Positions 3,835 to 27,635 of a DNA stretch of 32,000 nucleotides are shown here, in pieces. The position numbers and the translations under genes are program-made. The stretch lies in contig NZ_OMOH01000014.1 of NCBI RefSeq assembly GCF_900289195.1, positions 17,488 to 49,487 on the forward strand. Direction: 5' to 3'. The number at the start of each line of letters is the position of its first letter. Position 1 is the stretch's first letter. The notes beneath the pieces were generated by a model. It saw nothing but the letters and a program-made list of their open reading frames with translations, did no database searches and was not told where the DNA came from. The DNA comes from Propionibacterium ruminifibrarum (GTDB lineage Bacteria; Actinomycetota; Actinomycetes; Propionibacteriales; Propionibacteriaceae).

Positions 3835-3836
3835 CC

Positions 3837-4493: not shown

Positions 4494-4515
4494 GCCTTCC
4501 TCACACCAACCGACC

Positions 4516-4670: not shown

Positions 4671-5021
4671 ATGGCCGAGACACGCAAGCACAACCCCCGC
4701 ACCAGCAGCATCGGCGAGCGGGTGAGGGAGGCCATCGGCGGGGTGCCGCGCGTGAACCCTCCGGACCACGACGAGAGCCCCGCCGCCGGCGACGACCCCT
4801 TCGTGACCGCTCCGGAACCCGAACTCGACGAGGCCCCGATCATCGGTGCCGCCGCCGACCCGATGGGCGGGTACACGCTGCGTGCCGGTGACCAGCCGGG
4901 ACTCATCACGCTCGGCGCCGACCAGCTGGGCCGGCTGGCCAGGGTCATCCGCACCGAGGACGCCCCCGGTGACGGGGACGAGGACGACGAGTTCTGGGAC
5001 GACGAGGACATCGAACCCTGA
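4671..5021 (+). CDS. Hypothetical acidic protein (116 aa), no family recognised
   Basis: ATG is preceded by AAGGAG about 10 nt upstream. GC3 is very high throughout. The C-terminus is Asp/Glu-rich (GDGDEDDEFWDDEDIEP). Confidence 0.6.
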   Translation: MAETRKHNPRTSSIGERVREAIGGVPRVNPPDHDESPAAGDDPFVTAPEPELDEAPIIGAAADPMGGYTLRAGDQPGLITLGADQLGRLARVIRTEDAPGDGDEDDEFWDDEDIEP

Positions 5022-5053
5022 CCGGCGCGCCTGGCGCGTGACGGCCGAGGGGC

Positions 5054-6439: not shown

Positions 6440-6460
6440 GGGACCAGTGTGCCACCCGGC

Positions 6461-6495
6461 GGCGTCCAGCGGGGCGTTTCGCCCCGCTGGACGCC
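6461..6495 (-). terminator. Perfect 16-bp hairpin between metB and the DUF4032 gene
   Basis: GGCGTCCAGCGGGGCG-TTT-CGCCCCGCTGGACGCC. It begins 26 nt downstream of the metB stop on the minus strand. No U-tract follows. Confidence 0.5.
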
Positions 6496-6521
6496 GCATC
6501 AGCGCAGGGTCATGGCCCCGG

Positions 6522-7709
6522 TCAGGCCTGCGCGGCCCGTGCCGCGCGCTCGAGGGCGGCGGTCAGGTCGGCCGTGAGATCACCGATGGGCTCGATGCCG
6601 ACCGACAGCCTCAGCAGGGAGTCGCTGATACCCGCCGCCGCCCTCGCCTCGGGCGTCATGCCCACATGGGTCATGGTCGCCGGGTGGGCCAGCAGTGACT
6701 CGGTGCCGCCGAGGGACTCCGCCAGGTCGATGGCGACCAGGCCCTCGGCGAAGGCCTTGACCGCCTCGAAGCCGCCGTCCAGCTCGAAGCTGAGCAGCGA
6801 GCCGAAACCGTTCTGCTGGCGGGCGGCCAGCTCATGGCCCGGATGATCGGGCAGGCCCGGGTAGTTGACGACCGGCACCATGTCGCTGGCCTGCAGCAGC
6901 TCGACGACGGCGGCCGTGTTCTCCTGGTGGACGCGCAGGCGCGCGTCGATCGTCCTCAGCCCGCGCAGGGTCAGCCACGAATCCCAGGAGCCGCCGGTCA
7001 GCCCGAGGGTGCCGGCCCAGTGCTGCACCTGCTCACCGAGCTCGGTGGTCGAGGAGACGACCACGCCGCCGACCACGTCGGAATGGCCGTTGATGAACTT
7101 CGTCGTGGAGTGCAGCACGACGTCGGCCCCCAGGTCGATGGGGTTCGACAGCAGCGGCGAGCAGAAGGTGTTGTCGGCCACGAGGAGCGCGCCGTGGGCG
7201 TGGGCGAGTTCGGCGGTGGCGGCGATGTCGGTGATGCGCAGGAGCGGGTTCGAGGGCGTCTCGACCAGGACCAGCTCGGCCGGGGCGGCCAGGGCGGCCT
7301 GGACCTGGCCGGGATCGGCCATGTCGATGAAGTCGATCTCGATCCGTTCGCGGGAGGCCAGGTGGTCGAGCAGCCGCCACGTGCCGCCGTAGCAGTCGGC
7401 GGGGGCGACGACGCGTCCCCGCGGCCCGACGAGCGCCTCAATGGTGGTGGTGATCGCGCCCAGACCCGAGGCGGTGACGGTGGCGTCGACGCCGTGCTCC
7501 AGGTCGGCGAGCGCGCGGGCCAGCAGGGAGCGGGTCGGGTTGGTCGTGCGGGCGTAGTCGAAGGGCGGTTTCCCCTGGCCGAGGCAGGGGAAACGGTAGT
7601 TGGTGCTCGGGTACAGGACGGGGGTCACCGAACCGTATTGGGTGTCCGTGTCGAAGCCGGCGCGCACGGCGCGGGCGAGGGGGGACAGTGCGGGCTCTTC
7701 CTGGCTCAT
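6522..7709 (-). CDS. metB: Cystathionine gamma-synthase (Cys/Met-metabolism PLP enzyme)
   Basis: ATG 7709 is preceded by AGGAGG. The PLP-lysine motif HSTTKFINGHSD is present. Long blocks are colinear with E. coli MetB as I remember it (ARQQNGFGSLLSFELDG, LAESLGGTESLLAHPATMTHVGMTPEARAAAGIS). The upstream extension to 7952 is rejected. Confidence 0.85.
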   Translation of the reverse strand: MSQEEPALSPLARAVRAGFDTDTQYGSVTPVLYPSTNYRFPCLGQGKPPFDYARTTNPTRSLLARALADLEHGVDATVTASGLGAITTTIEALVGPRGRVVAPADCYGGTWRLLDHLASRERIEIDFIDMADPGQVQAALAAPAELVLVETPSNPLLRITDIAATAELAHAHGALLVADNTFCSPLLSNPIDLGADVVLHSTTKFINGHSDVVGGVVVSSTTELGEQVQHWAGTLGLTGGSWDSWLTLRGLRTIDARLRVHQENTAAVVELLQASDMVPVVNYPGLPDHPGHELAARQQNGFGSLLSFELDGGFEAVKAFAEGLVAIDLAESLGGTESLLAHPATMTHVGMTPEARAAAGISDSLLRLSVGIEPIGDLTADLTAALERAARAAQA

Positions 7710-7714
7710 GGGTG

Positions 7715-7800
7715 CCTCCTGGTCGTGCATGGGCGCTGCCGACGCCCTGATCCGACGATAGCCGCCCGGCCCCCGCCGCGCCGACGGGTTCACCAGGAGG
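7715..7800 (-). promoter_or_regulatory. Candidate SD-sequestering leader helix of metB
   Basis: On the minus-strand RNA, CCUCCUGGU (7800-7792) is perfectly complementary to ACCAGGAGG (7723-7715). The latter contains the metB SD, 5 nt before the AUG. A 68-nt GC-rich insert lies between the two arms. Confidence 0.35.
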
Positions 7801-7803
7801 ACA

Positions 7804-7846
7804 GCATGAGGGGCGGGCCCGGACCAAGCGGGCCCGCCCCTCATGC
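7804..7846 (-). terminator. Strong hairpin terminator after msiK
   Basis: 17-bp perfect arms GCATGAGGGGCGGGCCC / GGGCCCGCCCCTCATGC (18 bp with G7821-C7829) and a 7-nt loop, 27 nt after the msiK stop. Confidence 0.6.
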
Positions 7847-7872
7847 GGCCGGGCGAGTTGTTGTGTCGGGGA

Positions 7873-8952
7873 TCAGGAGATCCTCTCGGTGGTCGTCTTG
7901 TCGAAGACGTGCACCTTCGCGGGGTCGATGTGCAGGAGGACCCGCTCGCCACGGGACGGGGGAGTGCGGGTCGTGACCCGGGCGACGACCTGCTGGTCGT
8001 GGGGGACGCCGGTCAGCGAGCCGTACAGGTACGAGTCGGCGCCGGTCTCCTCGACCGCATTGACCGTCATCGTGAGCCCCTCGCCGGTGGGCGAGAGCTC
8101 GAAGTTCTCCGGCCTCACCCCCAGGACCACATCGGCGCCGGTGGCGCGCTCGGTGGTCTCCCGCGGAACGGGGAGCACAAGATCGCCGAGCTCGACGCCG
8201 CCGTCGACGACCCTGGCCGGGAGCAGATTCATCGCGGGCGAGCCGATGAAACCGGCCACGAAGAGGTTCTTCGGGCTGTCGTACAGGGCGAGCGGGCGGT
8301 CGACCTGCTGCAGCTTGCCGTCCTTCATGACCGCGACACGATCGCCCATCGTCATGGCCTCGACCTGATCGTGGGTGACGTAGACGGTGGTGACGCCCAG
8401 ACGGGTCTGCAGGGCGGCGATCTGGGTGCGGGTCTGCACGCGGAGCCTGGCGTCGAGATTGCTGAGCGGCTCGTCCATGAGGAAGACCTGCGGGTCGCGG
8501 ACGATCGCGCGGCCCATGGCGACGCGCTGGCGCTGGCCGCCTGACAGGTTCTTCGGCTTGCGGGTGAGCAGGTCCTCGAGTCCGAGCAGCTTGGCGGCCT
8601 CGAGCACCCGGCTCTCGCGCTCGTCCTTGGCCACGCCCTTCATCTTGAGCGCGAAACCCATGTTGTCCGCGACGGTCATGTGCGGGTAGAGCGCGTAGTT
8701 CTGGAAGACCATGGCGACGTCGCGGTCCTTCGGTGCCAGACCGGTGACGTCCTGGTCGCCGATCCACACCGAGCCGGAGTTGACCTCTTCCAGCCCGGCG
8801 AGCATGCGCAGCGATGTCGACTTCCCGCAGCCGGACGGGCCGACGAGCACCATGAACTCGCCGTCCCCGATCTCGAGGTTGAGCTTGTCGACCGCCGCAT
8901 GGTCGGCGCCGGGATAGATACGGGTAGCGTCCTTGTAACTGACAGTGGCCAT
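7873..8952 (-). CDS. msiK: Sugar ABC transporter ATP-binding protein (MalK/UgpC/MsiK family), orphan ATPase
   Basis: ATG 8952 (MATVSYKDATRIYPG). Walker A GPSGCGKST, signature LSGGQRQRV and Walker B VFLMDEPLSNLD are present, with a C-terminal MalK-type regulatory domain. No permease or binding-protein gene is adjacent. Confidence 0.85.
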   Translation of the reverse strand: MATVSYKDATRIYPGADHAAVDKLNLEIGDGEFMVLVGPSGCGKSTSLRMLAGLEEVNSGSVWIGDQDVTGLAPKDRDVAMVFQNYALYPHMTVADNMGFALKMKGVAKDERESRVLEAAKLLGLEDLLTRKPKNLSGGQRQRVAMGRAIVRDPQVFLMDEPLSNLDARLRVQTRTQIAALQTRLGVTTVYVTHDQVEAMTMGDRVAVMKDGKLQQVDRPLALYDSPKNLFVAGFIGSPAMNLLPARVVDGGVELGDLVLPVPRETTERATGADVVLGVRPENFELSPTGEGLTMTVNAVEETGADSYLYGSLTGVPHDQQVVARVTTRTPPSRGERVLLHIDPAKVHVFDKTTTERIS

Positions 8953-9007
8953 GAGCCACCACACCTTTCCACGGGCAGGAACGTGCCCGACGATCCGTAG
9001 TAGAGCA

Positions 9008-9028
9008 GGACGAAGGACGTCTTCGTCC
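9008..9028. promoter_or_regulatory. Palindrome in msiK upstream region (operator or 5'UTR hairpin)
   Basis: GGACGAAG-GACGT-CTTCGTCC, 8-bp perfect arms, about 56 nt upstream of the msiK ATG. It lies just downstream of a possible ATGACC-17 nt-GAGAAT promoter on the minus strand. Confidence 0.3.
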
Positions 9029-9187
9029 GCACCCGTATTCTCGCATACGGCGGGCGGCCGGTCATGAGAGCTGCGGCGCTCGGTCCCCCCACCCCTCACC
9101 CAGAGCTTTCTTGCCACATCCGTCGCTCTCGGGCATCATTGTCCCGTGGAATTTCCTCTGATGCGCACCTTCGCCGCTGGTTGTCGA

Positions 9188-9393: not shown

Positions 9394-10506
9394 GTGATCG
9401 AACTCACCGGCGTCAACGTGACCTTCCCCGGGCACAGTCCCGGGGAGCGGATCCACGCGGTACGCGACGTCGATCTGACCGTCAACGACGGTGACGTCTA
9501 CGGCATCGTCGGCTACTCAGGGGCAGGCAAGTCCACCCTCGTACGGACGATCAACCTGCTGCAGCGCCCCACGTCGGGTTCGGTCAGGGTCGACGGGCAG
9601 GAGATGACCATGCTCACGCCGACCCAGCTGCGCACCGCCCGCAAACGCATCGGCATGATCTTCCAGCACTTCAACCTGTTGGGATCGCGCACCCTGTTCG
9701 ACAACGTCGCCTACCCGCTCAGGGGCAACGGCCGGACGAAGAGCGAGATCCACGCCCGCGTCATGGACCTGCTCGACCTGGTCGGCATGGCCGACCGGGT
9801 CGGCGCCTACCCGAGTCAGCTGTCCGGCGGCCAGCGCCAGCGCGTGGCCATCGCCCGCGCCCTGGCGAACGATCCCACGGTGCTGCTCTGCGACGAGGCC
9901 ACCAGCGCCCTCGACCCGAAGACCACCAGCGGAATCCTCGACCTGCTCGGCCGGCTCAACGCCCGGACCGGGCTGACGATCGTCCTCATCACCCACGAGA
10001 TGGGCGTCATCAAGCAGATCTGCTCCGACGTGGCCGTCATGGAGGACGGCCGCATCATCGAGCGGGGCTCGGCCGTCGACGTCTTCACGAACCCGCAGCA
10101 GCCGCTCACCCGCGACTTCATCGACACCGCGAACCACGTCGACGCCGGCATCACGACGGTCATCACCCACCCCGACCTGATCCGGCTCGGCAACGGCGAC
10201 CGTCTCGTCTCCCTGCAGTTCGCCGGTGGCTCCACCGGCGACCCGATGGTCGCCACGCTGGCCCGCGACTACAACGTCAACGCGAACATCCTGTTCGCCA
10301 ACGTCGAGGTCATCGCGGGCACGCCGGTGGGGAATCTGCTGCTCAGCCTGTCGGGCGCCCAGCCCGACCTGGACGCGGCGGAGGCCTGGCTGGCCCGTTC
10401 CGGCGTGCGCGTCCACAACTACAGCGAGGCCGAGATCGAATCCATCCGGCGCCGCGCCACCGATGAACCCGGAACCCCCGGCGACGACCAGGAGGAACAG
10501 CGATGA
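9394..10506 (+). CDS. metN: Methionine ABC transporter ATP-binding protein
   Basis: GTG 9394 has GGAGG 8 nt upstream. Walker A GYSGAGKST, signature LSGGQRQRV and Walker B LLCDEATSALD are present, with a C-terminal NIL-like domain (NANILFANVEVIAGTPVGNLLLSL). The upstream 9064 extension is non-protein-like. Confidence 0.9.
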   Translation: MIELTGVNVTFPGHSPGERIHAVRDVDLTVNDGDVYGIVGYSGAGKSTLVRTINLLQRPTSGSVRVDGQEMTMLTPTQLRTARKRIGMIFQHFNLLGSRTLFDNVAYPLRGNGRTKSEIHARVMDLLDLVGMADRVGAYPSQLSGGQRQRVAIARALANDPTVLLCDEATSALDPKTTSGILDLLGRLNARTGLTIVLITHEMGVIKQICSDVAVMEDGRIIERGSAVDVFTNPQQPLTRDFIDTANHVDAGITTVITHPDLIRLGNGDRLVSLQFAGGSTGDPMVATLARDYNVNANILFANVEVIAGTPVGNLLLSLSGAQPDLDAAEAWLARSGVRVHNYSEAEIESIRRRATDEPGTPGDDQEEQR

Positions 10507-11195
10507 TCGACTGGCTCACCAACGCGGCGCACGTCCTCCTGCCGAACGTTTCGAGCAGACCCGGCGACCTGTGGGACGCCACCGTCGAGACCTGCTACAT
10601 GACGGCCGTCTCGGCGCTCATCGCCGGCGTGCTGGGCATCATCCTGGGCACGCTCCTGGTCGTCGTCGACCGGCGCGGCATCCTGCCGCACCCGGTGCTG
10701 TACTGGGTGCTCGACAAGCTCGTGAACCTGTTCCGCTCGATCCCGTTCGTCATCCTCATCGCCCTGGTCGGCCCGCTCACCCGCATCCTGACGGGCACGA
10801 CGATCGGCACCACGGCCGCCCTCGTCCCGCTCGTCATCGGCACGGTGCCGTTCTACGCCCGCCAGATCCAGAACGCGGTGCTCGAGGTCGACCCGGGCGT
10901 CATCGAGGCGGCCCAGGCGATGGGCTCCGGCCCGATGGAGATCATCTTCCGCGTCTACCTGCGCGAGGCCCGGCCCGGCATCATCCGCGTCTCGGCGCTG
11001 ACGATCATCAGCCTCATCGGACTCACGACGATGGCCGGCATCGTCGGCGGCGGCGGCCTGGGCGATCTGGCGATCTCCCGCGGCTACAACCGATTCCAGA
11101 CCGACGTCACCATCGTCTGCACGCTCGTCATCCTCGTCCTCGTCTACGTCTCCCAGGCGATCGCCGACTTCCTGGTCAAGCGCGTCACCCACTGA
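10503..11195 (+). CDS. metI: Methionine ABC transporter permease
   Basis: ATGA overlap with the metN stop. It is a multi-TM protein with an EAA-type loop (VIEAAQAMGSGPMEIIFRVYLREARPG). Confidence 0.9.
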   Translation: MIDWLTNAAHVLLPNVSSRPGDLWDATVETCYMTAVSALIAGVLGIILGTLLVVVDRRGILPHPVLYWVLDKLVNLFRSIPFVILIALVGPLTRILTGTTIGTTAALVPLVIGTVPFYARQIQNAVLEVDPGVIEAAQAMGSGPMEIIFRVYLREARPGIIRVSALTIISLIGLTTMAGIVGGGGLGDLAISRGYNRFQTDVTIVCTLVILVLVYVSQAIADFLVKRVTH

Positions 11196-11230
11196 ACACA
11201 CTCGACAACTTCTATCGTGAAGGAGAACTC

Positions 11231-12112
11231 ATGAAGCTCAAGCTCGCGGCCGCCGGGTTGGCCGCCGTCCTGTCCGTCGGCCTGGTCGGCTGCTCCGGCT
11301 CGTCCTCGGACTCCTCGTCCGGGGCGGACCAGGAGCGGGTCACCGTGAAGGTCGGTGTCGTCGGTGACAACAACGAACCGTGGGAGACCGCCGCCGAGGC
11401 GCTGGAGGAGAACGAGAACATCGAGATCGAGCTGGTGAAGTTCTCCGACTACGTGCAGCCGAACCAGGCGCTGAGTGACGGTTCGGTCGACCTGAACAGC
11501 TTCCAGACCCAGATCTACCTGGAGACCTACAACTCCGAGCACGGCACCGACCTCACCTCCATCGGCTACACCCTCATGGCCCCGCTCGGCATCTACTCCA
11601 ACGAGGTCGACTCGGTCGACGAGCTGCCCGACGGGGCCACCGTGTCCATCCCGGACGACGCCTCCAACGGGGGCCGGGCCCTCAAGCTGCTCGAGAAGGC
11701 GGGGCTCATCACCGTCGACCCCGCCGCGGGGTTGACCCCGACCACCGATGACATCACCGACAACCCGAAGAACCTGCAGATCACCGAGCTCGACGCCGCG
11801 CAGACCGCCCGCTCGCTGGAGGACGTGGACGCCGCGGTCATCAACTCCGGCATGGCCGTCGACGCGGGGCTGATCCCGAGCACCGATTCGATCTTCATCG
11901 AGGAGGTCGGTGAGGAGTCCACGCCGTACTACAACGTCATCGCGGCCCGCGCCGAGGACACCGACAACGAGACCTACAAGAAGGTCGTGGAGTACTACCA
12001 GAGTGACGCGGTCGCCCAGACCATCACCGAGTCCACCAAGGGCTCCCAGATCGCCGTCTGGGACGGTGCCCCGTCGGCCTCCCCGAGCGCCGCGCAGAGC
12101 ACAGCGGCCTGA
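11231..12112 (+). CDS. metQ: MetQ/NlpA-family methionine-binding lipoprotein, copy 1
   Basis: ATG 11231 is preceded by AAGGAG. It has a signal peptide with lipobox LVGC and NlpA-family blocks (FSDYVQPNQALSDGSVDLNSFQ, SNGGRALKLLEKAGLI). The long 10226 ORF extension is rejected. Confidence 0.9.
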   Translation: MKLKLAAAGLAAVLSVGLVGCSGSSSDSSSGADQERVTVKVGVVGDNNEPWETAAEALEENENIEIELVKFSDYVQPNQALSDGSVDLNSFQTQIYLETYNSEHGTDLTSIGYTLMAPLGIYSNEVDSVDELPDGATVSIPDDASNGGRALKLLEKAGLITVDPAAGLTPTTDDITDNPKNLQITELDAAQTARSLEDVDAAVINSGMAVDAGLIPSTDSIFIEEVGEESTPYYNVIAARAEDTDNETYKKVVEYYQSDAVAQTITESTKGSQIAVWDGAPSASPSAAQSTAA

Positions 12113-12226
12113 CACGACTCGTCCCGCACGTGACCGGCTCGTCGCCCAGCGGATCCGCGGCGGGCCCGTCACCCGGGACATCGCATCGCACGAAACCGAA
12201 CAGCACATCGCAGGGAAGGAACCGTC

Positions 12227-13093
12227 ATGAAGCTCAAGCTCGCGGCCGCAGGGTTGGCCGCCGTCCTGTCCGTCAGCCTGGTCGGCTGCTCCGGATCGTC
12301 CTCGGACAGTGAGGAGACCACCACCGTCAAGGTCGGTGTCTACGGTGACAACAACGAGCCGTGGGAGACCGCCGCGGCGAACCTGGAGGAGAACGAGAAC
12401 ATCGAGATCGAGCTGGTGAAGTTCTCCGACTACGTGCAGCCGAACCAGGCCCTGTCGGACGGTTCGGTCGACCTGAACAGCTTCCAGACCCAGATCTACC
12501 TGGAGACCTACAACTCCGAGCACGGCACCGACCTCACCTCCATCGGCTACACGATCATCGAGCCCATGGGCCTGTACTCGAACACCTACGACGACCTCGA
12601 CGCGCTGCCCGACGGGGCCACCGTGACCATCCCGAACGACGTCTCCAACGGGGGCCGGGCCCTCAAGCTGCTCGAGAAGGCCGGGCTCATCACCGTTGAT
12701 CCCGAGGCCGGCGTGACCGGCACGAAGGAGGACATCACCGACAACCCGAAGAACCTGCAGATCACCGAGCTCGACGCCGCGCAGACCGCCCGCTCCCTGA
12801 GCGACAGCGACCTGGCCGCCATCAACGCGGACATCGCGGTCGACGCCGGCCTGCTGCCCAGCGAGGACGCGCTGCTGCGCGAGGAGGTCGGTGAGGAGTC
12901 GGCGCCGTACTACAACGTCATCGCGGCCCGCGCCGAGGACACCGACAACGAGACCTACAAGAAGGTCGTGGAGTACTTCCAGACCGAGGAGGTGGCCCAG
13001 ACCATCGCCGACGCCTACAAGGGCTCGCAGTTCCCCGTGTGGGAGGGCGCCCCGTCCCTCAGCCCGAGCGCCGCGCAGAGCACGGCGGCCTGA
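12227..13093 (+). CDS. metQ: MetQ/NlpA-family methionine-binding lipoprotein, copy 2 (tandem paralog)
   Basis: ATG 12227 is preceded by GGGAAGGAA. The signal peptide and lipobox match copy 1. Long stretches are near-identical to copy 1 at the DNA level, interrupted by diverged segments. Confidence 0.9.
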   Translation: MKLKLAAAGLAAVLSVSLVGCSGSSSDSEETTTVKVGVYGDNNEPWETAAANLEENENIEIELVKFSDYVQPNQALSDGSVDLNSFQTQIYLETYNSEHGTDLTSIGYTIIEPMGLYSNTYDDLDALPDGATVTIPNDVSNGGRALKLLEKAGLITVDPEAGVTGTKEDITDNPKNLQITELDAAQTARSLSDSDLAAINADIAVDAGLLPSEDALLREEVGEESAPYYNVIAARAEDTDNETYKKVVEYFQTEEVAQTIADAYKGSQFPVWEGAPSLSPSAAQSTAA

Positions 13094-13173
13094 CCGGCGC
13101 GTTCACAACCATCCGGCGGCCCGGGCCGGCGGGAGCCCCGCAGGCCCGGGTCACCACAGCAACGGAAGACACC

Positions 13174-14364
13174 ATGAGTTTCACCCAGCAGGGCATCCAC
13201 GCCGAGATCGAGGCGCTCACCGGGCGCATCATCGCCGACCGGCGTCATCTTCACCAGCACGCCGAGACGAGCCTGAAGGAGTTCGGCACGGCGAAGTACA
13301 TCGCCGACCGTCTCGATGAGCTGGGCATCGGCCACGTCAAGGTCGGCGAGACCGGCGTGCTCGGCACCCTCGAGGGCGCCGGCCCGGGCAGGACGCTCAT
13401 GCTGCGCGCCGACATCGACGCCCTGCCGCTGCGCGACGGGTGCGGCGCCGAGTGGGCCAACACGACCAGCGAGGCCAACCACGCCTGCGGACACGACGGC
13501 CACGTCAGCGCCCTGCTGGCCGCCGCCGAGGTGCTCGCGGCGCACCGCGCCGACTTCAACGGCACCATCAAGTTCGCCTTCCAGCAGGCCGAGGAGATCG
13601 GAGCCGGCGGCCTCATCTTCGAGAAGCAGGGCGTCCTCGAAGGCCTCGACCAGGTCTTCGGCCTCCACCTGTCCTCCGAACTCCCGGTGGGCACGGTCAG
13701 CGCGACCGCCGGCCCCCAGTGGGCCAGCGTCGACCACTTCTCGATCGACGTGCACGGCAAGGGCGGCCACGTCTCCAGGCCGCACCTGTGCCGTGACGCG
13801 CTCGTCGCGGGCGCCTCGATCGTCGTCGAGGCCCAGCAGATCGTGTCCCGCGAACTCGACCCCTTCGCCGAGGCCGTCGTGGGCATCGGCACGTTCACCT
13901 CGGGCGAGAACTACAACATCATCGCCTCGTCGGCGCACATCGAGGGCACCGTGCGCGCCTTCGACGAGCAGGTGCGCGCCACCGTGCTGGCCTCGCTCGA
14001 ACGCATCGCCGACGCCACGGCCCGTGCCCACAACACGACCGCCGAGTTCACCCGCACCGTCTACGCCGACGTCCTCGACAACGACCCCGAGGCGGCGCGC
14101 TTCGCCGCCCGGGTGGCCCTCGAGGTGCCGGGCGTCGAGCAGGTCGTCACCAACAGCCCCAAGAGCGCAGGCGGCGACGACTTCGCGGTCTTCCTGCACC
14201 ATGCGCCAGGCGTCTACGCCCGGGTCGGTTCCGGCGGCACCCCCGCCACGAGCCACCCGCACCACACCTACGAGTTCGCGCTCGACGAGGCGGCCCTGCC
14301 GATCGCCGCAGAGCTGCACGCCGGCTACACGCTGCGCTGGCTGGCCGGCGGCTACGAGGGCTGA
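13174..14364 (+). CDS. M20D-family amidohydrolase (N-acyl-amino-acid / hippurate hydrolase type)
   Basis: ATG 13174 (MSFTQQGIHAEIEAL...). The metal-binding motif HACGHDGH is present, together with GTIKFAFQQAEE and M20 dimerisation-domain-like sequence. It is on the same strand as metQ copy 2, 80 nt downstream. Confidence 0.85.
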   Translation: MSFTQQGIHAEIEALTGRIIADRRHLHQHAETSLKEFGTAKYIADRLDELGIGHVKVGETGVLGTLEGAGPGRTLMLRADIDALPLRDGCGAEWANTTSEANHACGHDGHVSALLAAAEVLAAHRADFNGTIKFAFQQAEEIGAGGLIFEKQGVLEGLDQVFGLHLSSELPVGTVSATAGPQWASVDHFSIDVHGKGGHVSRPHLCRDALVAGASIVVEAQQIVSRELDPFAEAVVGIGTFTSGENYNIIASSAHIEGTVRAFDEQVRATVLASLERIADATARAHNTTAEFTRTVYADVLDNDPEAARFAARVALEVPGVEQVVTNSPKSAGGDDFAVFLHHAPGVYARVGSGGTPATSHPHHTYEFALDEAALPIAAELHAGYTLRWLAGGYEG

Positions 14365-14385
14365 CCCGCCCCGTACCGAACCGAT

Positions 14386-14427
14386 CGAGGCCCCGCACCC
14401 GACAATCCGACGGGTAGCGGGGCCTCG
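14386..14427. terminator. Bidirectional hairpin between convergent amidohydrolase and ABC genes
   Basis: CGAGGCCCCGC(A)CCCG ... CGGG(TA)GCGGGGCCTCG, giving 11+4 bp arms with a 1-nt bulge. It sits between the stops at 14364 (+) and 14449 (-). Confidence 0.6.
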
Positions 14428-14448
14428 CGCACCCCAGGGGCGAGACGC

Positions 14449-16188
14449 TCAGCGCACGCTCCAGCGGGCGGTCCGCCAGAAGTCCTGCACCAGCGCGGCG
14501 AACATGCCGTCACCTGCGGCGAGCTCGGCCGGGGAGCCCTGCTCGACGATGCGGGTCGGGCCGCCGTGCTCGCGCCCGGACAGGACGTAGACCTGGTCGG
14601 CGTTCATGATCGTCGACAGGCGGTGGGCGATGACGACGACCGTCCGCCCGGCCGCCAGCTCGGCCAGCGTCTGCGTGATGGCCGACTCGTTCTCGGCGTC
14701 CAGCGCCGAGGTGATCTCGTCCAGCAGCAGGATGGGGGAGTCCTTCAGGAAGGCGCGGGCGATCGAGACCCGCTGCCGCTCGCCCCCCGACAGCCGCAGC
14801 CCGCCCTCACCGACCCGGGTGTCGAGGCCGTCGGGCAGGGCGGCGACGACGGCGTCCAGCCCGGCCCTCGAGATGGCTGCGGCCAGCTCCGCCTCGCTCG
14901 CGTCCGGGCGGGACAGGCGCACGTTCTCGGCGATCGTCGTGTCGAACAGGTAGACGTCCTGGAAGACCATCGAGACCATGCCCATGAGCTCGGCGGAGTC
15001 GATGCGCCGCACGTCGACGCCGCCGACACTGATCGAGCCCGAGCCGACGTCCCAGAAGCGGGCGATGAGCTTGACGATCGTCGACTTGCCGCAGCCCGAC
15101 GGGCCCACCAGCGCGGTGATCCGGCCCTCGTCGGCGCGCAGTGACAGGTGCTCGAAGAGCGTGTCGTCGGCCTCGTAGCCGAAACCCACATCGTCCAGGA
15201 CGATGCCGGTGCCCGACGGGTGCCGGGGGTGCGCCGGCTCGGGCAGGGCCGGGGTCTGGACGATCTGTTCGATCGTGTCGAGGCTCACCATGTCCTGCTG
15301 CAGGGCGGCGGCGTAGAACACCGACTGCGAGATGGGCGTGGTGAATCGGGCCGCCATGACGCCGATGGCGACGAAGGCGGCGACGTCGAGCCCGCCGCCC
15401 AGCACGACGCCCAGGCCGGCGGCCAGTACTGCGGCGAAGAAGGCCTGGCCGAGCAGGCCGAAGGCGATGGCCGGGCGTCCCTGGGCCGTCATGATCGCGT
15501 CCAGCCCGCGGTTCTCGTCGTCGAGGGCCTTCGCGAGGGGCGGCCAGGCGGTGCCCGAGATGCCCTGGGCGCGCAGCACCGGCTGCAGGTGGGCGTGCTC
15601 GATGGTTGCCGAGGCGGTCCGTGCGGCGATGGCGGGCGCCTCCTGGTGCTCTGTCATGAGCAGCCGCGAGGCCCAGTTCCACAGCAGGACGACGACCGGC
15701 ACCACGAGGGCCATGATGAGGCCGAGACGCCACTCGTAGCAGAAGGTGACGACCATCACCGTGAGCGGGGTGACGATTCCCGAGATGAACTGCGGCAGCA
15801 CGACGGGGGCCAGGTGCGACAGGTTGTCGGTCTCTGTCGAGATGGCCGAGGAGACCCGCCCGACCGAACCCGAGTCGAACCAGCCCAGCGGCAGCCGCAC
15901 GACGCGCGAACCGATCCGTGCGACGGCGTTGCCGCAGACGTCGTAGGCGCTCACCCTGTTCGCACGGATCAGGGTGGCGGCTTGGACGACGAAGGAGGCC
16001 GCGCCGAACCCGATGAGTACCCACATCGGGCCCCACGCCCGGGAGGGGTCGGGTCCGAGGAAGGCGCGCAGGAAACCGATGAACGCGCTGAAGGCGATGC
16101 CCTGCAGGACGGCCGCGACGACGTAGCCGGCGATCAGCAGGTAGATCGTCGAGGGCCGGTCGAAGAAGGTGTTGAAGCGTCTAAGCAT
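14449..16188 (-). CDS. ABC transporter permease/ATP-binding protein (type-I exporter fold half-transporter), subunit 2
   Basis: N-terminal 6-TM domain plus C-terminal NBD with Walker A GPSGCGKST, signature LSGGERQRV, Walker B ILLLDEITSALD and H-loop VVIAHRL. Its ATG overlaps the upstream gene's stop by 8 nt. Confidence 0.85.
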   Translation of the reverse strand: MLRRFNTFFDRPSTIYLLIAGYVVAAVLQGIAFSAFIGFLRAFLGPDPSRAWGPMWVLIGFGAASFVVQAATLIRANRVSAYDVCGNAVARIGSRVVRLPLGWFDSGSVGRVSSAISTETDNLSHLAPVVLPQFISGIVTPLTVMVVTFCYEWRLGLIMALVVPVVVLLWNWASRLLMTEHQEAPAIAARTASATIEHAHLQPVLRAQGISGTAWPPLAKALDDENRGLDAIMTAQGRPAIAFGLLGQAFFAAVLAAGLGVVLGGGLDVAAFVAIGVMAARFTTPISQSVFYAAALQQDMVSLDTIEQIVQTPALPEPAHPRHPSGTGIVLDDVGFGYEADDTLFEHLSLRADEGRITALVGPSGCGKSTIVKLIARFWDVGSGSISVGGVDVRRIDSAELMGMVSMVFQDVYLFDTTIAENVRLSRPDASEAELAAAISRAGLDAVVAALPDGLDTRVGEGGLRLSGGERQRVSIARAFLKDSPILLLDEITSALDAENESAITQTLAELAAGRTVVVIAHRLSTIMNADQVYVLSGREHGGPTRIVEQGSPAELAAGDGMFAALVQDFWRTARWSVR

Positions 16189-17953
16189 GCCGGGCTCCTG
16201 TCATCGTCTGGTTCTGCGCGGCCCACAGCTCGGCGTACTGCCCGCCGGCCGCCAGCAGCTGGTCGTGGGTGCCGACCTCGGCGACTCGCCCGCCGTCCAC
16301 GACGGCGATCTGGTCGGCGCTGCGGATGGTCGACAGCCGGTGGGCGATCATCACGACCGTCCTGCCCCGGGCCAGGGCGGTGATGGCCCGCTGGATCTCC
16401 AGCTCGGAGTGGGCGTCGGCCTGGGCCGTGGCCTCGTCGAGGATGAGGATCGGGGGAGCGGCCAGGAAGGCGCGGGCGATGGTCAGGCGCTGCGCCTCGC
16501 CGCCGGACAGGAAACCGGCGCCCTCCCCGAGCATCGTGTCGTAGCCGTCGGGCAGCGTCATGATCCTCTCGTGGATGTGCGCCGCCCGGGCTGCCTCGAC
16601 GATCTCATCGCGGGTGGCATCGGGCCTGCCCAGGGCGATGTTTTGGGCGACCGTGTCGGTGGCGGTCATGATCTCCTGGAAGACGAGCGACATCGAGCTC
16701 ATGAGCTGCTGGTTCGTCTGGTCGCGCACGTCGACGCCGCCGATTTTGATCCGGCCCGAGTCGACGTCCCAGAAGCGGGCGATGAGTTTGGCCAGCGTCG
16801 ACTTGCCACCGCCGGAGGGGCCGACGAGCGCGGTCACTGTGCCGGGACGGCAGGTGAGGCTGACGTCCTTGATGACCGGTGTGCCGGGCTCGTACGAGAA
16901 GGACACGTGCTCCAGCTCGATGAGGGAGCGGTCGGCGGTGTACACGGCCGGGGCGGCCGGCTCGGGCAGTTCCTCGGCTGACAGTACGTCGAGGGTTGAC
17001 CGCGCCGCCTCGGCCGCCGCGTAGACCTGCTGGAAGATCTGCACCAGCGCCATGAGGCCCTCGGGGATGCCCACCCAGACGAGGGCGAAGGCGAGCACCG
17101 TGAGGGGCTGGGTCCATCCCATGCGGACGAACCAGTAGCCGATGCCGGTGGTGAGGGCCAGGATCGTGGCCGGCTGCATGGCCGCGCCGACGATCGCCAC
17201 CCCGATTCCCGAGGAGTTCATCCACTCCATTGAGACGTCGGCGTGCCGCCTGCGGGCGGCGTCGAAACGGCCGAACACCGTGGCGGTCATGCCGAAGTTC
17301 TTGACCTCCTTGATGCCGTCGACCATCTCGACGGTCACCGCGGCGAGTTCGCGTTCGGCGGCCGAGTAGTCCTCGAAGCTCCTGCCCATGGCCCGCAGGC
17401 TCGGCAGCATGCACAGGGCGAGCAGCAGCAGCCAGCCGGCGATGAGCGCCCCGGCGAGGCGGGCGTCCAGCCACAGCAGATAGCCGAAGCCCACGACGAC
17501 GACCCCCAGGGTGTTCGCCAGGTCGCCCGACAGGTGCGTGACGAGTGAGTGGATCGAGCTGGTGTCCGAGGTGATCGCCTTGCGGACCACGCCGCTGGAC
17601 CGGTCGTTGAACCAGCCGAGCGGCACGTGCTTGAGCTTGTCGACCAGGCGCAGCCGCAGCTCGTAGCGCAGCGCCGCCTCGGTGCGGTGGTTCGCGCCGA
17701 CGGCGCCCGTGTAGGCGACCCCGTGCACGACCATGGCGGCGGCGGACGCCACGACCCAGCCCCACAGGTGGGCCCGTGGCGCGCCCGACCAGAGCCCCCG
17801 GGCGATCTCGACCAGCCCGATGTACGGCACGATCTTCAGGGCCGAGCCGATGAAGGCGGCCAGGCCGCCGAGCAGCATCGAGCGGTGCGCGCCGGCGGTC
17901 AGCTCCCAGACGTTCTTCGGCGGCCTGCCGGCCGCAGGTGGTGGTGTGCTCAT
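16181..17953 (-). CDS. ABC transporter permease/ATP-binding protein (type-I exporter fold half-transporter), subunit 1
   Basis: ATG 17953 (MSTPPPAAGRPPKNVWEL...) is preceded by GAGGAGGGAAG. It has a TMD plus an NBD with Walker A GPSGGGKST, signature LSGGEAQRL, Walker B ILILDEATAQAD and H-loop MIAHRL. The 18496 extension is an Arg/Pro-rich shadow frame. Confidence 0.85.
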   Translation of the reverse strand: MSTPPPAAGRPPKNVWELTAGAHRSMLLGGLAAFIGSALKIVPYIGLVEIARGLWSGAPRAHLWGWVVASAAAMVVHGVAYTGAVGANHRTEAALRYELRLRLVDKLKHVPLGWFNDRSSGVVRKAITSDTSSIHSLVTHLSGDLANTLGVVVVGFGYLLWLDARLAGALIAGWLLLLALCMLPSLRAMGRSFEDYSAAERELAAVTVEMVDGIKEVKNFGMTATVFGRFDAARRRHADVSMEWMNSSGIGVAIVGAAMQPATILALTTGIGYWFVRMGWTQPLTVLAFALVWVGIPEGLMALVQIFQQVYAAAEAARSTLDVLSAEELPEPAAPAVYTADRSLIELEHVSFSYEPGTPVIKDVSLTCRPGTVTALVGPSGGGKSTLAKLIARFWDVDSGRIKIGGVDVRDQTNQQLMSSMSLVFQEIMTATDTVAQNIALGRPDATRDEIVEAARAAHIHERIMTLPDGYDTMLGEGAGFLSGGEAQRLTIARAFLAAPPILILDEATAQADAHSELEIQRAITALARGRTVVMIAHRLSTIRSADQIAVVDGGRVAEVGTHDQLLAAGGQYAELWAAQNQTMTGARHA

Positions 17954-17985
17954 GGAACGCTTCCCTCCTCGACGGGCGGGGCCGG

Positions 17986-18630
17986 TCAGACGATGCCGGC
18001 CCGCTTGAACTGCTTCCTCGTCAGCGCGCGGCCCCAGTGGCAGCCGATGACCGCGGCCACGACGCCGAGCACGCAGAACACGGCCATCGTCAGCGGGTTC
18101 AGCAGCTCCGTGCCCGCGCGGGCCACCTCGAGGGCGGCGTTGTCGGCGTACTGGTCCAGGTAGGCCTGCTTCATCCAGACGAAGGGGATGTACTCGCCGA
18201 TCGCGTAGCAGGCGATGAAGGCGCTGTAGGCGACGGTCATCGCGCGGAAGGAGCGGCGCCCGAGCCGGGAGTAGATGAGTTCGGCGACGACACCGCCGAG
18301 GATCGTCATGTAGCACATGGAGCCGCCGGGGGCCATCGTGATGAGGCACAGGCCGAGGATGAGGCCGGTGATGAGGAACGAGCCGGGGCGCTGCACCTTG
18401 CCGAGCAGGACGGTGAAGACCAGGCCGCCGAACAGGCCGAAGATCACCGGCAGCAGCACCATGATGATCGGCACGGCGGCCATGACCATGCCGCACAGCA
18501 TGAACAGCACGATGTACAGGGCGATGAACACGCCCATCGTCACGTAGTCGCGGACCGCCGAGTTCTTGTACCGGGCCCGCTCCTGGGGCGCCGTGCGGCC
18601 CTGGGCGGTGTCGGGTTCGGTCTGGCTCAT
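17986..18630 (-). CDS. Putative ECF transporter S component (MptD / Trep_Strep TIGR02185-like)
   Basis: ATG 18630 forms an ATGA overlap with the ATPase stop. The product is 214 aa with about 6 TM segments and a C-terminal tail RKQFKRAGIV, which I recall as typical of the Trep_Strep family. It sits directly after the ECF A-A' and T genes. Confidence 0.7.
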   Translation of the reverse strand: MSQTEPDTAQGRTAPQERARYKNSAVRDYVTMGVFIALYIVLFMLCGMVMAAVPIIMVLLPVIFGLFGGLVFTVLLGKVQRPGSFLITGLILGLCLITMAPGGSMCYMTILGGVVAELIYSRLGRRSFRAMTVAYSAFIACYAIGEYIPFVWMKQAYLDQYADNAALEVARAGTELLNPLTMAVFCVLGVVAAVIGCHWGRALTRKQFKRAGIV

Positions 18631-20111
18631 GGATGTCTCCGTTCTGTCGAGGGTTGCCGGGTGCCGCCGTGCGGGCCGCAGGTGACGGCTTCCAGCCGCA
18701 TCCGGCGGTCGCCGATGCGGATCACGTGGTCGAAGGTCTCGGCGGCGAACTCGGTGTCGTGGGTGATGACGAGCACGAGCGCGCCCTCCTCGGCGACCTG
18801 CCGCAGCAGTCCCGAGAGGGCGCGCATGGCGGCTGCGTCGAGGCCGCTGGTGGGTTCGTCGAGGCAGATGACCGGGGCCTGTTTCATGCAGGCCAGGGCG
18901 ATGCCCACGCGCTGCTTCTGGCCGCCGGAGAGGGTCAGGGGGTGCTGCCCGGCCAGCGCGTCGAGCCCCATCCGGGCGAGCAGCTCGTCGGCCCGCCGTC
19001 GGGTCCGCTCGCCCGGTTCGGGGCCGATGAGCAGTTCGGCGCGCACCGATTCGCCGAGCAGCTGGTACTCGACGTCCTGCATGACGTAGGCGCACTGGCG
19101 GGTGCGCCGGCGGCGCGGCCAGTCGGAGCCGCCGAGCCGGACACGGGCGCCCCGGCAGGCGAGCAGGCCGAGGACGAACCTGACGAGCGTCGTCTTGCCG
19201 CAGCCGTTGGCGCCGGTGACGCCCACCACGCCGCGGGCGGGCAGGTGAAGGTCGTCGATGCTCCACAGCACGTCGTGGCCGGGGTGGGCGAAGCGGGCCG
19301 AGGCGATGTGCAGGCCGCCGTCCGGGATCGGCCCGGTGCACGGGCGCGACTCGAGGGCGGGCGGGTGCAGCCGGCGCAGGCCCCGGTCGGTGAACCACTG
19401 GGCGTCCCGGGCGGCGATGTCGTCGGCGCCCAGGTCGGTGACGACACGGCCGTGGTCCATGACGACGACACGGTCGAGGACGCCGTCCAGGTAGCCGAGG
19501 CGGTGGTCGGCGACAACCACCGTCACCCCGCGGGCCCTGAGCGAGCCGATCACCCCGGTGAGCATCGCCAGGGCCTCGGTGTCGAGGTTGGCCGAGGGCT
19601 CGTCGAAGAGCAGGATGCGCGGGCGCATCATGAGGGCGGCGCCGATGGCGACCTTCTGCTTCTCGCCGCTGGACAGTCTCGCGAGCCCCCGTCCCAGCAG
19701 GTGTTCGAGGCCCACCGCCGCCGCAGTCTCGTCGATCCGCCGGGTGATCTCGGCCGGCTCGATGCCCGCGTTCTCGCAGGGGAAGGCCAGCTCGCTGCGC
19801 ACGTCGAAGGTGAAGAATTCCGAGCGGGGGTCCTGGAAGACGTAGCCGACACGGGACGCCAGCTCGGCCGTGGTGTACTGCGCCACCGGCGAGCCGTCGA
19901 CGAGTACCCCGCCGCGTGTCTGCGCCTCATGGAACCCGGGAACGAGCCCGTTGATCGAGCGCAGGGCGGTGGTCTTGCCGCACCCCGAGGGGCCGGTGAG
20001 CAGGACGGTCTGCCCGTCGGGGATCAGCAGGTCGATGCCCTCCAGGGCCGGCGGCAGGGGGCCGTCGTCGCCCAGGTAGGCGACGCGGAACTGCTGGAAC
20101 TCGATGCCCAT
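18627..20111 (-). CDS. ECF-type fused tandem ATPase (EcfA-EcfA' duplicated ABC domains)
   Basis: Two complete NBDs are present: GPSGCGKTT / LSSGEKQKV / ILLFDEPSANLD, and GANGCGKTT / LSGGQKQRV / VICLDEPTSGLD. There is no TMD. Confidence 0.85.
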   Translation of the reverse strand: MGIEFQQFRVAYLGDDGPLPPALEGIDLLIPDGQTVLLTGPSGCGKTTALRSINGLVPGFHEAQTRGGVLVDGSPVAQYTTAELASRVGYVFQDPRSEFFTFDVRSELAFPCENAGIEPAEITRRIDETAAAVGLEHLLGRGLARLSSGEKQKVAIGAALMMRPRILLFDEPSANLDTEALAMLTGVIGSLRARGVTVVVADHRLGYLDGVLDRVVVMDHGRVVTDLGADDIAARDAQWFTDRGLRRLHPPALESRPCTGPIPDGGLHIASARFAHPGHDVLWSIDDLHLPARGVVGVTGANGCGKTTLVRFVLGLLACRGARVRLGGSDWPRRRRTRQCAYVMQDVEYQLLGESVRAELLIGPEPGERTRRRADELLARMGLDALAGQHPLTLSGGQKQRVGIALACMKQAPVICLDEPTSGLDAAAMRALSGLLRQVAEEGALVLVITHDTEFAAETFDHVIRIGDRRMRLEAVTCGPHGGTRQPSTERRHP

Positions 20112-20112
20112 C

Positions 20113-20871
20113 TCAGCCGACCAGCACCTTCAGCCCGGCGACGGCCGCGACGCAGGCGCCCGCCAGCGCCACGTCGACGGGCTGGACGCGCGGCGCGACC
20201 AGGGCGGTGCGGCGGGCGTCTGGGTCGAGCCCCTTGCAGACTGCGACGGCCGCCAGCTCGTCGGCGATCCGGCCGGTGCGCATGAGCACCGGGACGACGA
20301 GATGCTCGCACTGGGTGACCGGGTGCCGCACCCAGCGCCGCCAGGCGGGCTGGGCGTGGCGCAGCCGTGCGCCGGAGCGGATCACGCGGATCTCGCCCAC
20401 GAGGGTGGGCACGTAGCGGTAGACGACGATGAGGACGACCAGGAGCGTTCCGGGCACGAGCAGTTTCTGCATCGCCGCCATGACCTCGCCCATCGGGAGC
20501 GAGCGGAACACGAGCCAACCGGTGACGTAGATCGGGTAGGCCTTGACGACGAGGGTGAGTGCGATGCCGAGGAAGGGCACCAGGGGGATGGCGCCGCCGA
20601 TGGTGCACAGCCGCTGGGCGATCAGCAGGAGCGCGTAGACGGCGCCCAGCTTCCAGGCGCCCCGGGCCGCGCCGAGCAGGAGGCACAGGGTGAGCGCGAA
20701 GAGGGTGGCAAGCACCGAGCCGAGGCCGGTGCGGACGACGGCCGACTCGACGGCCATCGCCGCGATCATCACGAGGCCGGCCCTCAGATCGGGCTTGGCA
20801 GGGGCCGCGGCCTGGGTGGTGTCGCGGTGAGTGGGCGACAGCGCCTGCGCTGTGCTGGTTATCAGATCCAC
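20113..20871 (-). CDS. ECF transporter transmembrane (T) component, EcfT/CbiQ family
   Basis: 252-aa membrane protein with coupling-helix-like Arg motifs (IRVIRSGARLR, MRTGRIADELAAVAVCKG). Its stop lies 1 nt before the ATPase start. The GTG start at 20871 is uncertain and its SD is weak. Confidence 0.7.
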   Translation of the reverse strand: MDLITSTAQALSPTHRDTTQAAAPAKPDLRAGLVMIAAMAVESAVVRTGLGSVLATLFALTLCLLLGAARGAWKLGAVYALLLIAQRLCTIGGAIPLVPFLGIALTLVVKAYPIYVTGWLVFRSLPMGEVMAAMQKLLVPGTLLVVLIVVYRYVPTLVGEIRVIRSGARLRHAQPAWRRWVRHPVTQCEHLVVPVLMRTGRIADELAAVAVCKGLDPDARRTALVAPRVQPVDVALAGACVAAVAGLKVLVG

Positions 20872-21116
20872 CGATCCGACGTTACCTTCTTAGGTGAGCC
20901 TTCGCTATATGCATGTCGTATTGCTCAATGTCGGCGTGGCTACTGTCGTGACCGGGCGTAAGACCTTGTTCGCCGGGTAATCCCCGTTCTGGTGGCCGGG
21001 AGACGATCCCGCGGGCGAAAGCGATGCCCGGGGCCCGCCCCGTCAGAGTTGGACGGAGCCGTGCCCAGCAGCTGGAACCCGTCATCGTGCTCCGGCGCGC
21101 AGGTAGCCTAGGCCAC

Positions 21117-27547: not shown

Positions 27548-27623
27548 GTGGAGCCCCCGGAGGGAGTCGAACCCTCGACCCTTCGCTTACAAGGCGAATG
27601 CTCTGGCCGCTGAGCTACGGAGG
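27548..27623 (-). tRNA. tRNA-Thr (anticodon UGU), CCA encoded
   Basis: The reverse complement folds as a cloverleaf: acceptor GCCTCCG/CGGGGGC, D stem GCTC/GAGC, anticodon stem TTCGC/GCGAA with loop CTTGTAA, T arm GAGGG-TTCGACT-CCCTC, discriminator T, CCA. Total length is 76 nt. Confidence 0.9.
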
Positions 27624-27635
27624 CGTCGCCGGACT

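Follow-up and report, generated by a model that had tools for sequence, protein, structure and literature searches.

A gene cluster of the kind analyzed here has already been described in Mycobacterium avium paratuberculosis (MAP). This cluster, mptABCDEF (MAP3736c-MAP3731c, on the LSP14 island), was described between 2004 and 2014 as two putative ATP-binding cassette (ABC) transporters. Our subject is a five-gene operon in a 32-kb stretch of Propionibacterium ruminifibrarum DNA (the window; contig NZ_OMOH01000014.1, positions 17,488 to 49,487). The operon encodes an energy-coupling factor (ECF) importer module, with S, T, and A components, and a pair of half-transporters in which a transmembrane domain (TMD) is joined to a nucleotide-binding domain (NBD). 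Its architecture is not new: it is a new member of the mpt-type cluster known from MAP. The new findings are predicted control by an iron box, a cassette that is widespread and mobile, and an assignment of the subunits that holds across phyla. On balance, we favor the view that this is an operon for the uptake of chelated iron.

In MAP, the products of mptABC were called "IrtAB-like" (mptA, mptB, and mptC are all most similar to Rv1348), and mptE and mptF were annotated as a cobalt-type (CbiQ) permease and a cobalt-type ATPase. The cluster adjoins a nonribosomal peptide synthetase (NRPS) cluster, "sid", and a gene of the major facilitator superfamily (MFS). An mptD mutant is attenuated. Expression of mptE is not affected by deletion of mptD, and the authors concluded that mptEF is transcribed separately.

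The MAP cluster and our operon have the same set of components (IrtA-like TMD-NBD genes, MptD, T, and A), as judged by their descriptions and not by sequence. MptD of MAP is also the namesake of the family of our S component. The MAP cluster lies on horizontally acquired DNA beside MFS and NRPS-type genes, much like two of the loci that we compared, one from a metagenome-assembled genome (MAG) of the Propionibacteriaceae (L004) and one from a gut metagenome (L024). There are also differences. The ABC genes come first in MAP, followed by S, T, and A, whereas the order here is T, A-A', S, ABC1, ABC2. MAP has three IrtA-like genes and our operon has two. The MAP genes respond to zinc through Zur, but we predict a DtxR/IdeR iron box. 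And mptEF was taken to form a separate transcript in MAP, whereas all of the junctions here are 32 nt or less.

Two comparable systems have been linked to heme. In Streptococcus pyogenes, the putative ABC transporter genes siaD and siaE precede siaF, siaG, and siaH (ECF S, T, and A) in an MtsR-regulated operon, and siaFGH has been reported to be a heme importer. As in our operon, two ABC genes accompany ECF S, T, and A, with SiaF and SiaDE likened to our proteins by description alone. The sia genes sit in a heme-receptor operon (shr, shp, siaABC), but the window has no such genes. In Staphylococcus lugdunensis, LhaSTA is a Fur-regulated ECF heme importer, and LhaS is reported to coordinate heme via a histidine. 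Like our module as we interpret it, LhaSTA is a dedicated, iron-regulated ECF importer for an iron chelate (heme), and its S-T-A order matches that of staphylococcal MptD-family loci. In contrast to our operon, it lacks a neighboring TMD-NBD pair, and its regulator is Fur instead of the predicted DtxR; LhaS is only a candidate member of the S family.

The sequence-only reading of this DNA had stated that no functional characterization of the arrangement was known. That statement does not hold: mptABC and mptDEF of MAP have been described, mutated, and found to be regulated by Zur and zinc, and the sia operon has the same gene set. Searches for further counterparts gave little. No S. lugdunensis or S. 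pyogenes protein was among the best 120 matches of a search with a staphylococcal S component (many of these matches were from staphylococci), and a profile search with a 68-sequence alignment of the S family returned only close relatives. We found nothing relevant in the literature under the family names Trep_Strep, TIGR02185, and PF09605, and reviews of heme were no more informative. We also considered the ECF-like heme system of L. sakei and rejected it as a counterpart (it has a different S component and transcobalamin-like partners).

Components of the operon

The operon and its upstream element are as follows.

20890-20908, no strand assigned: DtxR/IdeR-type iron box ATAGCGAAGGCTCACCTAA (as on the minus strand), 18 nt upstream of the GTG of the T gene
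20113-20871, minus strand: ECF T component, 252 aa, GTG start (PF02361 CbiQ, 43.9 bits; cutoff 25)
18627-20111, minus strand: fused ECF A-A' ATPase, 494 aa, with two ABC_tran domains
17986-18630, minus strand: MptD/Trep_Strep-family ECF S component, 214 aa (PF09605, TIGR02185)
16181-17953, minus strand: half-transporter 1 (ABC1), TMD-NBD, IrtA/YbtP-like, with ABC_membrane and ABC_tran domains
14449-16188, minus strand: half-transporter 2 (ABC2), TMD-NBD, IrtB/YbtQ-like, with ABC_membrane and ABC_tran domains

The genes are listed in the order of transcription, and together they span 14449-20871. A 1-nt gap separates T from A-A' (TGAgATG, from stop to start), A-A' overlaps S by 4 nt, a 32-nt gap with the ribosome-binding site GAGGAGGGA lies between S and ABC1, and ABC1 overlaps ABC2 by 8 nt. 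The five genes are translationally coupled in one operon. The whole window is about 70% GC, and in DNA of this composition the codon-position GC signature marks these as coding frames: GC at the third codon position (GC3) is 0.93-0.95 (for the stop-to-stop frames with a single gene), and GC1 exceeds GC2 in all five. The sequence-only reading had given the same five open reading frames (ORFs), with matching translations, and the same tight packing, which can be read off the coordinates and the sequence. Its gene assignments (T, A-A', S, and two half-transporters) agree with our Pfam and NCBIfam scans.

We compared the half-transporters (580-590 aa), neither of which meets any equivalog cutoff, with single-chain half-transporters of known structure in the PDB. 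Over its full length, ABC1 is most similar to IrtA (352 bits), ahead of YbtP (292) and Sav1866 (255). ABC2 is most similar to YbtQ (272 bits), followed by YbtP (247) and IrtB (227). Because the NBDs dominate the full-length scores, we also searched with the TMDs alone. TMD1 matched IrtA at 71 bits and YbtP at 50, with the next family, MsbA, at 30; the best match for TMD2 was YbtQ (59 bits), and IrtA scored 44. As an independent check, we made TMD profiles from remote members alone, namely ECF-linked partners in Firmicutes and in distant Actinobacteria, so that neither the window protein nor its close orthologs contributed. The subunit-1 profile matched IrtA at 151 bits, YbtP at 141, and YbtQ at 78, with Sav1866, TM288, MsbA, and CydD at 68 or less. 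The subunit-2 profile put YbtQ (93.6) and IrtB (93.0) on top, by a smaller margin (TM288 scored 76).

Since both the TMD-only and the independent-profile searches rank the two counterparts at the top, the pair is a heterodimer of the IrtAB/YbtPQ type, subunit for subunit. The sequence-only reading had mentioned IrtAB and YbtPQ as precedents, and this hunch is borne out. On the basis of these similarities, its label "exporter" should be replaced by "IrtAB/YbtPQ-like". IrtAB (from M. tuberculosis and M. thermoresistibile) and YbtPQ (from Yersinia and E. coli) are the relatives of known structure that score best, each subunit pairing with its proper counterpart, and they have two canonical ATP sites as our pair does, but the TMD similarity is remote (50-70 bits). 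Also, IrtA has an N-terminal siderophore-interaction domain (a flavin adenine dinucleotide reductase) and ABC1 does not. The sequence of ABC1 starts with the TMD, its alignment covers residues 282 to 843 of IrtA, and only ABC_membrane and NBD-type ATPase families reach the Pfam cutoff. Because ABC1 lacks the reductase domain, we describe the pair as IrtAB-like and not as orthologous to IrtAB.

The irtAB and ybtPQ genes are iron-regulated, and their products have aryl-capped substrates. To our knowledge, IrtAB and YbtPQ are the only characterized ABC importers with an "exporter" fold, and we know of no link between either of them and an ECF module.

Direct reading of the NBD motifs agrees with the earlier description of them as canonical. 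The Walker A motifs of the four NBDs are GPSGCGKTT, GANGCGKTT, GPSGGGKST, and GPSGCGKST. All four have a signature motif, a Walker B motif ending in D-E, and the histidine of the H-loop, and the AQAD D-loop occurs in ABC1 alone.

We also considered a thiol or heme exporter of the CydDC type and rejected it. Against the CydD model (cutoff 435), ABC1 and ABC2 score 247.8 and 246.4; against the CydC model (cutoff 329), they score 230.8 and 241.2. The independent subunit-1 profile gives CydD just 60 bits, versus 151 for IrtA.

In the ECF module, the T component has the invariant arginine in its first coupling-helix motif (LRH here, LRG in most relatives). The second motif is CKG here versus TRG in most relatives; this arginine-to-lysine change is conservative, and it is shared with Corynebacterium cystitidis. 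Both motifs recur in the T proteins of the family, and the subgroup of the window is the one with lysine in the second. The A-A' protein matches TIGR01166 (cbiO) at 246.5 bits, which is over the cutoff of 211.8, and the next best models, ECF_ATPase_1 and ECF_ATPase_2, score under their own equivalog cutoffs. The S component matches PF09605 (Trep_Strep) at 151.6 bits (cutoff 28.7) and TIGR02185 ("MptD family putative ECF transporter S component") at 90.6 bits (cutoff 76.45), almost end to end in both cases. At 214 aa and strongly hydrophobic, it fits the profile of this family (about 190-210 aa). A Propionibacteriaceae MAG encodes an identical protein (100%), and NCBI gives the close relatives of our S component the MptD family name. 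No S-component model with a defined vitamin or metal substrate matched it in the Pfam and NCBIfam scans, and we rejected the reading as a known vitamin or metal S component. The family assignment is thus the one proposed from the sequence alone. By these family matches, T, the fused A-A', and S are a dedicated (group-I) ECF importer. ECF systems are importers that are mostly known for vitamins and for nickel and cobalt.

The 68-sequence alignment of the S family has no conserved stretch. The C terminus of our S component (RKQFKRAGIV) is basic, and K206 and F208 are nearly invariant among the 68 members. An AlphaFold2 model made with this alignment is helical throughout and scores well (pLDDT, a per-residue confidence, of 92.6; pTM, the predicted template modeling score, of 0.85). 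Its best fold match in the PDB is the ECF S component 5EDL (probability 1.00, TM-scores of 0.49/0.52, E = 0.018), and PanT ranks tenth. A sequence search against the PDB found no relative. By itself the fold evidence is modest. It is consistent with an ECF S component, and this assignment is strengthened by the gene context: S stays with T and A-A' in every locus with flanking sequence.

We take 5EDL to be the structure of YkoE, so the closest solved fold to the S model would be from YkoEDC, a group-I ECF system of Bacillus subtilis. YkoEDC is likewise a dedicated module with a fused A-A' ATPase. But there is no detectable sequence similarity between YkoE and our S component (the TM-score is only about 0.5), and YkoEDC handles a thiamine-related vitamin under riboswitch control, unlike the metal-type operator that we predict here.

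The iron box and related loci

We compared 27 loci, which came from one scan of a genome collection (with a narrow S alignment; 17 loci in two groups) and nine look-ups of contigs. We scanned for the actinobacterial DtxR/IdeR iron box with the consensus TWAGGTWAGSCTWACCTWA, a 19-bp palindrome. In the window, the site at 20890-20908 is the only one within 6 mismatches (it has 4); a site this good occurs anywhere in 8% of shuffled windows. The iron box is a feature that the sequence-only reading missed.

A box is found at the start of the operon in 11 of the 12 actinobacterial loci with upstream sequence. The same position is occupied by a box with 2-3 mismatches in L001-L006, L008, L018, L019, and L022. 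All seven Propionibacteriaceae loci that include the promoter have a box with three mismatches, and Propionibacterium acidifaciens has two boxes in tandem. Upstream of the module in C. cystitidis, 2 nt from the T start, there is a box with two mismatches; an actinobacterial MAG also has such a box ahead of its module, and another lies before a solitary S gene in a different MAG (L019). In L018, L019, and L022, no second site with up to 4 mismatches occurs in the 11-20 kb of sequence. We did not find an iron box at another Corynebacterium locus (L020). In an alignment of the promoters, the invariant columns lie in the core of the box, and the sequence on either side is too different to align. 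Because 11 of the 12 actinobacterial loci have the box in this position, the operon is probably under iron repression, via a predicted operator to which a DtxR/IdeR-family repressor would bind.

Scans for Fur boxes in the AT-rich loci of Firmicutes were too noisy to use, except in Clostridium cavendishii. This locus (L015) has Fur-box-like sites with 2-3 mismatches at 4062-4080, 5587-5605, and 7516-7534, one of which precedes the ECF T gene by about 150 nt.

The linkage between the two machines is conserved across phyla. In 19 of the 25 informative loci (the window and 18 others, from both Actinobacteria and Firmicutes), the MptD-type S gene has a TMD1-like/TMD2-like pair no more than 6 kb away. 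The ECF module and the pair are thus syntenic in related genomes; a lack of such synteny was one of the refuting outcomes named in the sequence-only reading. The TMD1-like gene comes first in every pair. The order of the ECF genes is T-A-A'-S in Propionibacteriaceae, C. cystitidis, and Clostridia, and S-T-A-A' elsewhere. The close relatives with organism names are P. acidifaciens, P. australiense, and Pseudopropionibacterium massiliense.

In Pseudopropionibacterium massiliense (L006:10072-11668), the pair is missing between the S gene and a phosphopantetheinyl transferase (PPTase) gene. (In L004, the PPTase gene follows the pair.) A weak TMD1-like match of 25 bits at 10072-10917 may be the remnant of a deletion.

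Some of the neighboring genes hint at a substrate. In L004, the flanks of the module (3-7775 and 14222-14959) hold a divergent MFS gene of the aromatic-acid type, a PPTase gene, and a second, divergent MptD-type ECF set. They also encode two adenylating enzymes that resemble 2,3-dihydroxybenzoate (DHB)-AMP ligases (549 and 347 bits, with the next non-DHB family at 229 and 153), and one of these has a carrier domain fused at its N terminus. L004 also has further iron boxes, at 6392-6410 with 1 mismatch and at 2767-2785 with 4. There is no condensation domain in the 20 kb of L004. From its gene content, L004 looks like a small cluster for an aryl-capped metallophore. Elsewhere, a FecCD/Peripla_BP_2 importer adjoins the module (L022) or FeoAB is nearby (L026). 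Genes for DtxR/MntR-family repressors are found inside the cassette in Clostridium argentinense (L011; the best score of this repressor is to MntR, at 74 bits, below the cutoff) and in L024. AraC regulators flank the pairs at some loci, and a TetR regulator adjoins the pair in L021.

The cassette is also mobile. In L024 (8828-16733), an AraC regulator, S-T-A-A'-ABC-ABC, and the DtxR-family repressor are the cargo of an integrative element, whose genes (1-8548 and 16795-20407) encode a relaxase, a MobC/NikA-like protein, ArdA, a topoisomerase, and an integrase. This element is very common, because the S clusters P0314 and P0315 hold 1,360 and 2,895 sequences. (We had considered whether the abundant cluster P0314 was from S. 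pyogenes, but it turned out to be the gut mobile element.) Biosynthesis genes do not accompany the cassette in the window, in C. cystitidis, or on the mobile element.

Direction of transport and substrate

We lean toward an iron-starvation-induced, mpt-type uptake operon for chelated iron, with both machines importing. We strongly infer that, when iron is present, a DtxR/IdeR-family repressor sits on the 19-bp box, which overlaps the promoter 18 nt before the first start, and that in low iron the repressor is released and all five genes are transcribed. The S component would then capture a small metal chelate at the outer face. It would topple against T, powered by ATP hydrolysis in A-A', and release the chelate inside. 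The IrtAB/YbtPQ-like pair would import a metal-metallophore complex through its type-IV fold, as both of its characterized relatives do. Because the pair lacks the reductase domain of IrtA, release of the iron would have to occur elsewhere. The likeliest class of substrate is an aryl-capped (catecholate or phenolate) metallophore, either a xenosiderophore or one made elsewhere in the genome, with heme as the second candidate. The catecholate or phenolate leads because of the aryl-acid adenylating enzymes of L004 and the aryl-capped substrates of IrtAB and YbtPQ. As for why two importers would be inherited together, we favor the view that they provide two routes or handle two forms of one chelate (such as free and membrane-associated).

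Several observations weigh against uptake of chelated iron. The MAP cluster is induced by zinc starvation, not by iron starvation, through Zur (FurB), and has no IdeR site, so the metal may differ between lineages. The iron box is predicted from sequence, the window's own box has 4 mismatches, and the 32 kb include no gene for DtxR or IdeR. Nor does the window contain siderophore, heme, or reductase genes. Some loci in Firmicutes have TetR or AraC regulators and no clear Fur box. The ECF genes occur without the pair in 6 of the 25 loci (L006, L007, L009, L019 with its solitary S gene, L023 from staphylococci, and L027 from Enterococcus), so the two machines are not obligatorily linked. The putative binding residues are almost unconserved across the S family, which suggests S paralogs with different substrates. 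Finally, export is the rule among type-IV ABC transporters. The pair would import a metal-siderophore by analogy with its relatives, and sequence alone does not reveal the direction.

The sequence-only reading had raised, as pure inference, a cycle in which the pair pumps a chelator out and the ECF module re-imports the metal-loaded form; in a recycling variant, what leaves the cell is a spent metallophore rather than a newly made one. We consider this unlikely, even though it fits the usual direction of type-IV transporters. The tight co-inheritance of the two machines across phyla, despite permuted gene orders, suggests a partnership rather than redundancy, and biosynthesis-like genes adjoin the module in L004 and MAP. 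But both subunits group with two experimentally established importers. An MFS gene, the usual candidate for an exporter, is present wherever there are biosynthesis genes. And the cassette often travels without biosynthesis genes, even as mobile cargo, which fits piracy by uptake (export of a spent xenosiderophore would still be compatible). Together with the fact that ECF systems are importers, these points lead us to favor import. It is less likely again that the operon acquires heme, with S binding heme, the ECF module importing it as an iron source, and the pair importing heme too or relieving its toxicity. SiaFGH and LhaSTA are ECF heme importers under iron or metal regulators, the sia operon has the same gene set (siaD, siaE, and ECF S, T, and A), and the S-T-A order of LhaSTA is that of the staphylococcal MptD-family loci. 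Also, the three named relatives are host-associated. However, SiaF and LhaS are only candidate members of the MptD/Trep_Strep family, and the orthologous group of the window's S component has no conserved histidine of the sort reported to bind heme in LhaS. The partner TMDs resemble siderophore importers and not the heme-handling CydDC (60 bits for CydD versus 151 for IrtA), and related loci carry aryl-acid adenylation genes rather than heme genes.

We see it as improbable that the chelated metal is zinc, manganese, nickel, or copper, with the box serving a DtxR-family regulator that responds to some metal that is not iron. The zinc response of mptABCDEF and the MntR-like repressor within the L011 cassette (74 bits, below the cutoff) would fit, and YbtPQ imports yersiniabactin complexes of several metals. 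However, the box fits the IdeR/DtxR consensus with 2-4 mismatches in 11 loci, and no motif of the Zur type (GANAANNNTTTTC) is visible by eye in the window's promoter. The operon is very unlikely to have no role with metals at all, that is, to be an efflux pair for drugs or peptides beside a functionally unlinked ECF importer for an organic micronutrient. It is true that the half-transporters meet no equivalog model and have multidrug and lipid exporters among their matches, that a TetR regulator adjoins the pair in L021, and that some S genes are solitary or lack the pair. Against this, the linkage and the subunit order are conserved across phyla, iron boxes lie in the promoters, metal repressors lie within cassettes, the TMDs have a specific affinity to IrtAB and YbtPQ, and the MAP cluster responds to metal starvation.

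Returning to the uptake of chelated iron, we propose a bolder extension, which we offer tentatively. The ECF module and the pair may be interdependent halves of one conserved, horizontally mobile cassette for handling metallophores, which has been rewired to different metal regulons by swapping operators (the DtxR/IdeR box here, Zur in MAP, and its own DtxR/MntR-type repressor in Firmicutes). For example, one half could bring the metal chelate in while the other returns the spent chelate, or the two halves could take up two physical forms.

Surroundings of the operon and its wider meaning

Upstream, the operon is bounded by a divergent VTT/DedA gene. Downstream, it converges on an M20-family peptidase gene across an 84-nt spacer that carries a strong hairpin.

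14386-14427, minus strand: GC-rich hairpin without a U-tract, between the convergent ABC2 and M20-peptidase genes

The RNA of 14360-14455 (minus strand) folds at -61.6 kcal/mol (z = -4.0 versus shuffled sequences), and the hairpin is likely the end of the transcript. A scan for terminators found none, but it requires a T-run and the DNA is high in GC; for the same reason, a scan for sigma-70 promoters, which found nothing, was weak. The M20 gene is at 12895-14364 on the plus strand of the window, and P. australiense has one in the same position (L002:7459-9024, minus strand). At the other loci examined, no M20 gene was seen there. Because the M20 gene is found only in the closest relative examined, it probably reflects local synteny and not a functional partner. 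We rejected a functional link between the operon and the neighboring MetNIQ and M20-peptidase genes.

The rest of the window contains housekeeping genes (Lut, MetNIQ, a MalK/MsiK-type ABC ATPase, TrkA, MMPL, and GroEL). The MalK/MsiK-type ATPase gene (frame 7873-9135, minus strand) carries an msiK RNA motif in its 5' region, at 8968-9004 on the minus strand (Rfam RF01747; 45.6 bits against a gathering score of 33). Between the gene for a MetI-like permease (which ends at 11195) and that for a MetQ/NlpA lipoprotein, there is about 1 kb (11196-12226) in which GC content dips locally to 0.65 and there is no convincing coding frame. No Rfam family matches this region at threshold, and an antisense ORF (11144-12523) has no Pfam match. 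A tRNA-Thr gene (anticodon TGT) is at 27549-27624 on the minus strand, between the MMPL-family and phosphomannose isomerase genes.

With this analysis, the annotation that we propose for the window changes from an ECF transporter plus multidrug exporters to a probable iron-repressed, mpt-type uptake operon. The co-inheritance of the two machines from Actinobacteria to Firmicutes, their fixed subunit order, their metal-responsive operators, and their presence on mobile elements suggest a widespread and little-studied route for chelated metals, which would concern both commensals and pathogens among Gram-positive bacteria. This offers a context for the unexplained virulence phenotype of mptD in MAP, and possibly for siaDE of S. 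pyogenes. If the two halves of the cassette truly depend on each other, then this would be the first case of an ECF transporter working together with a type-IV ABC transporter.

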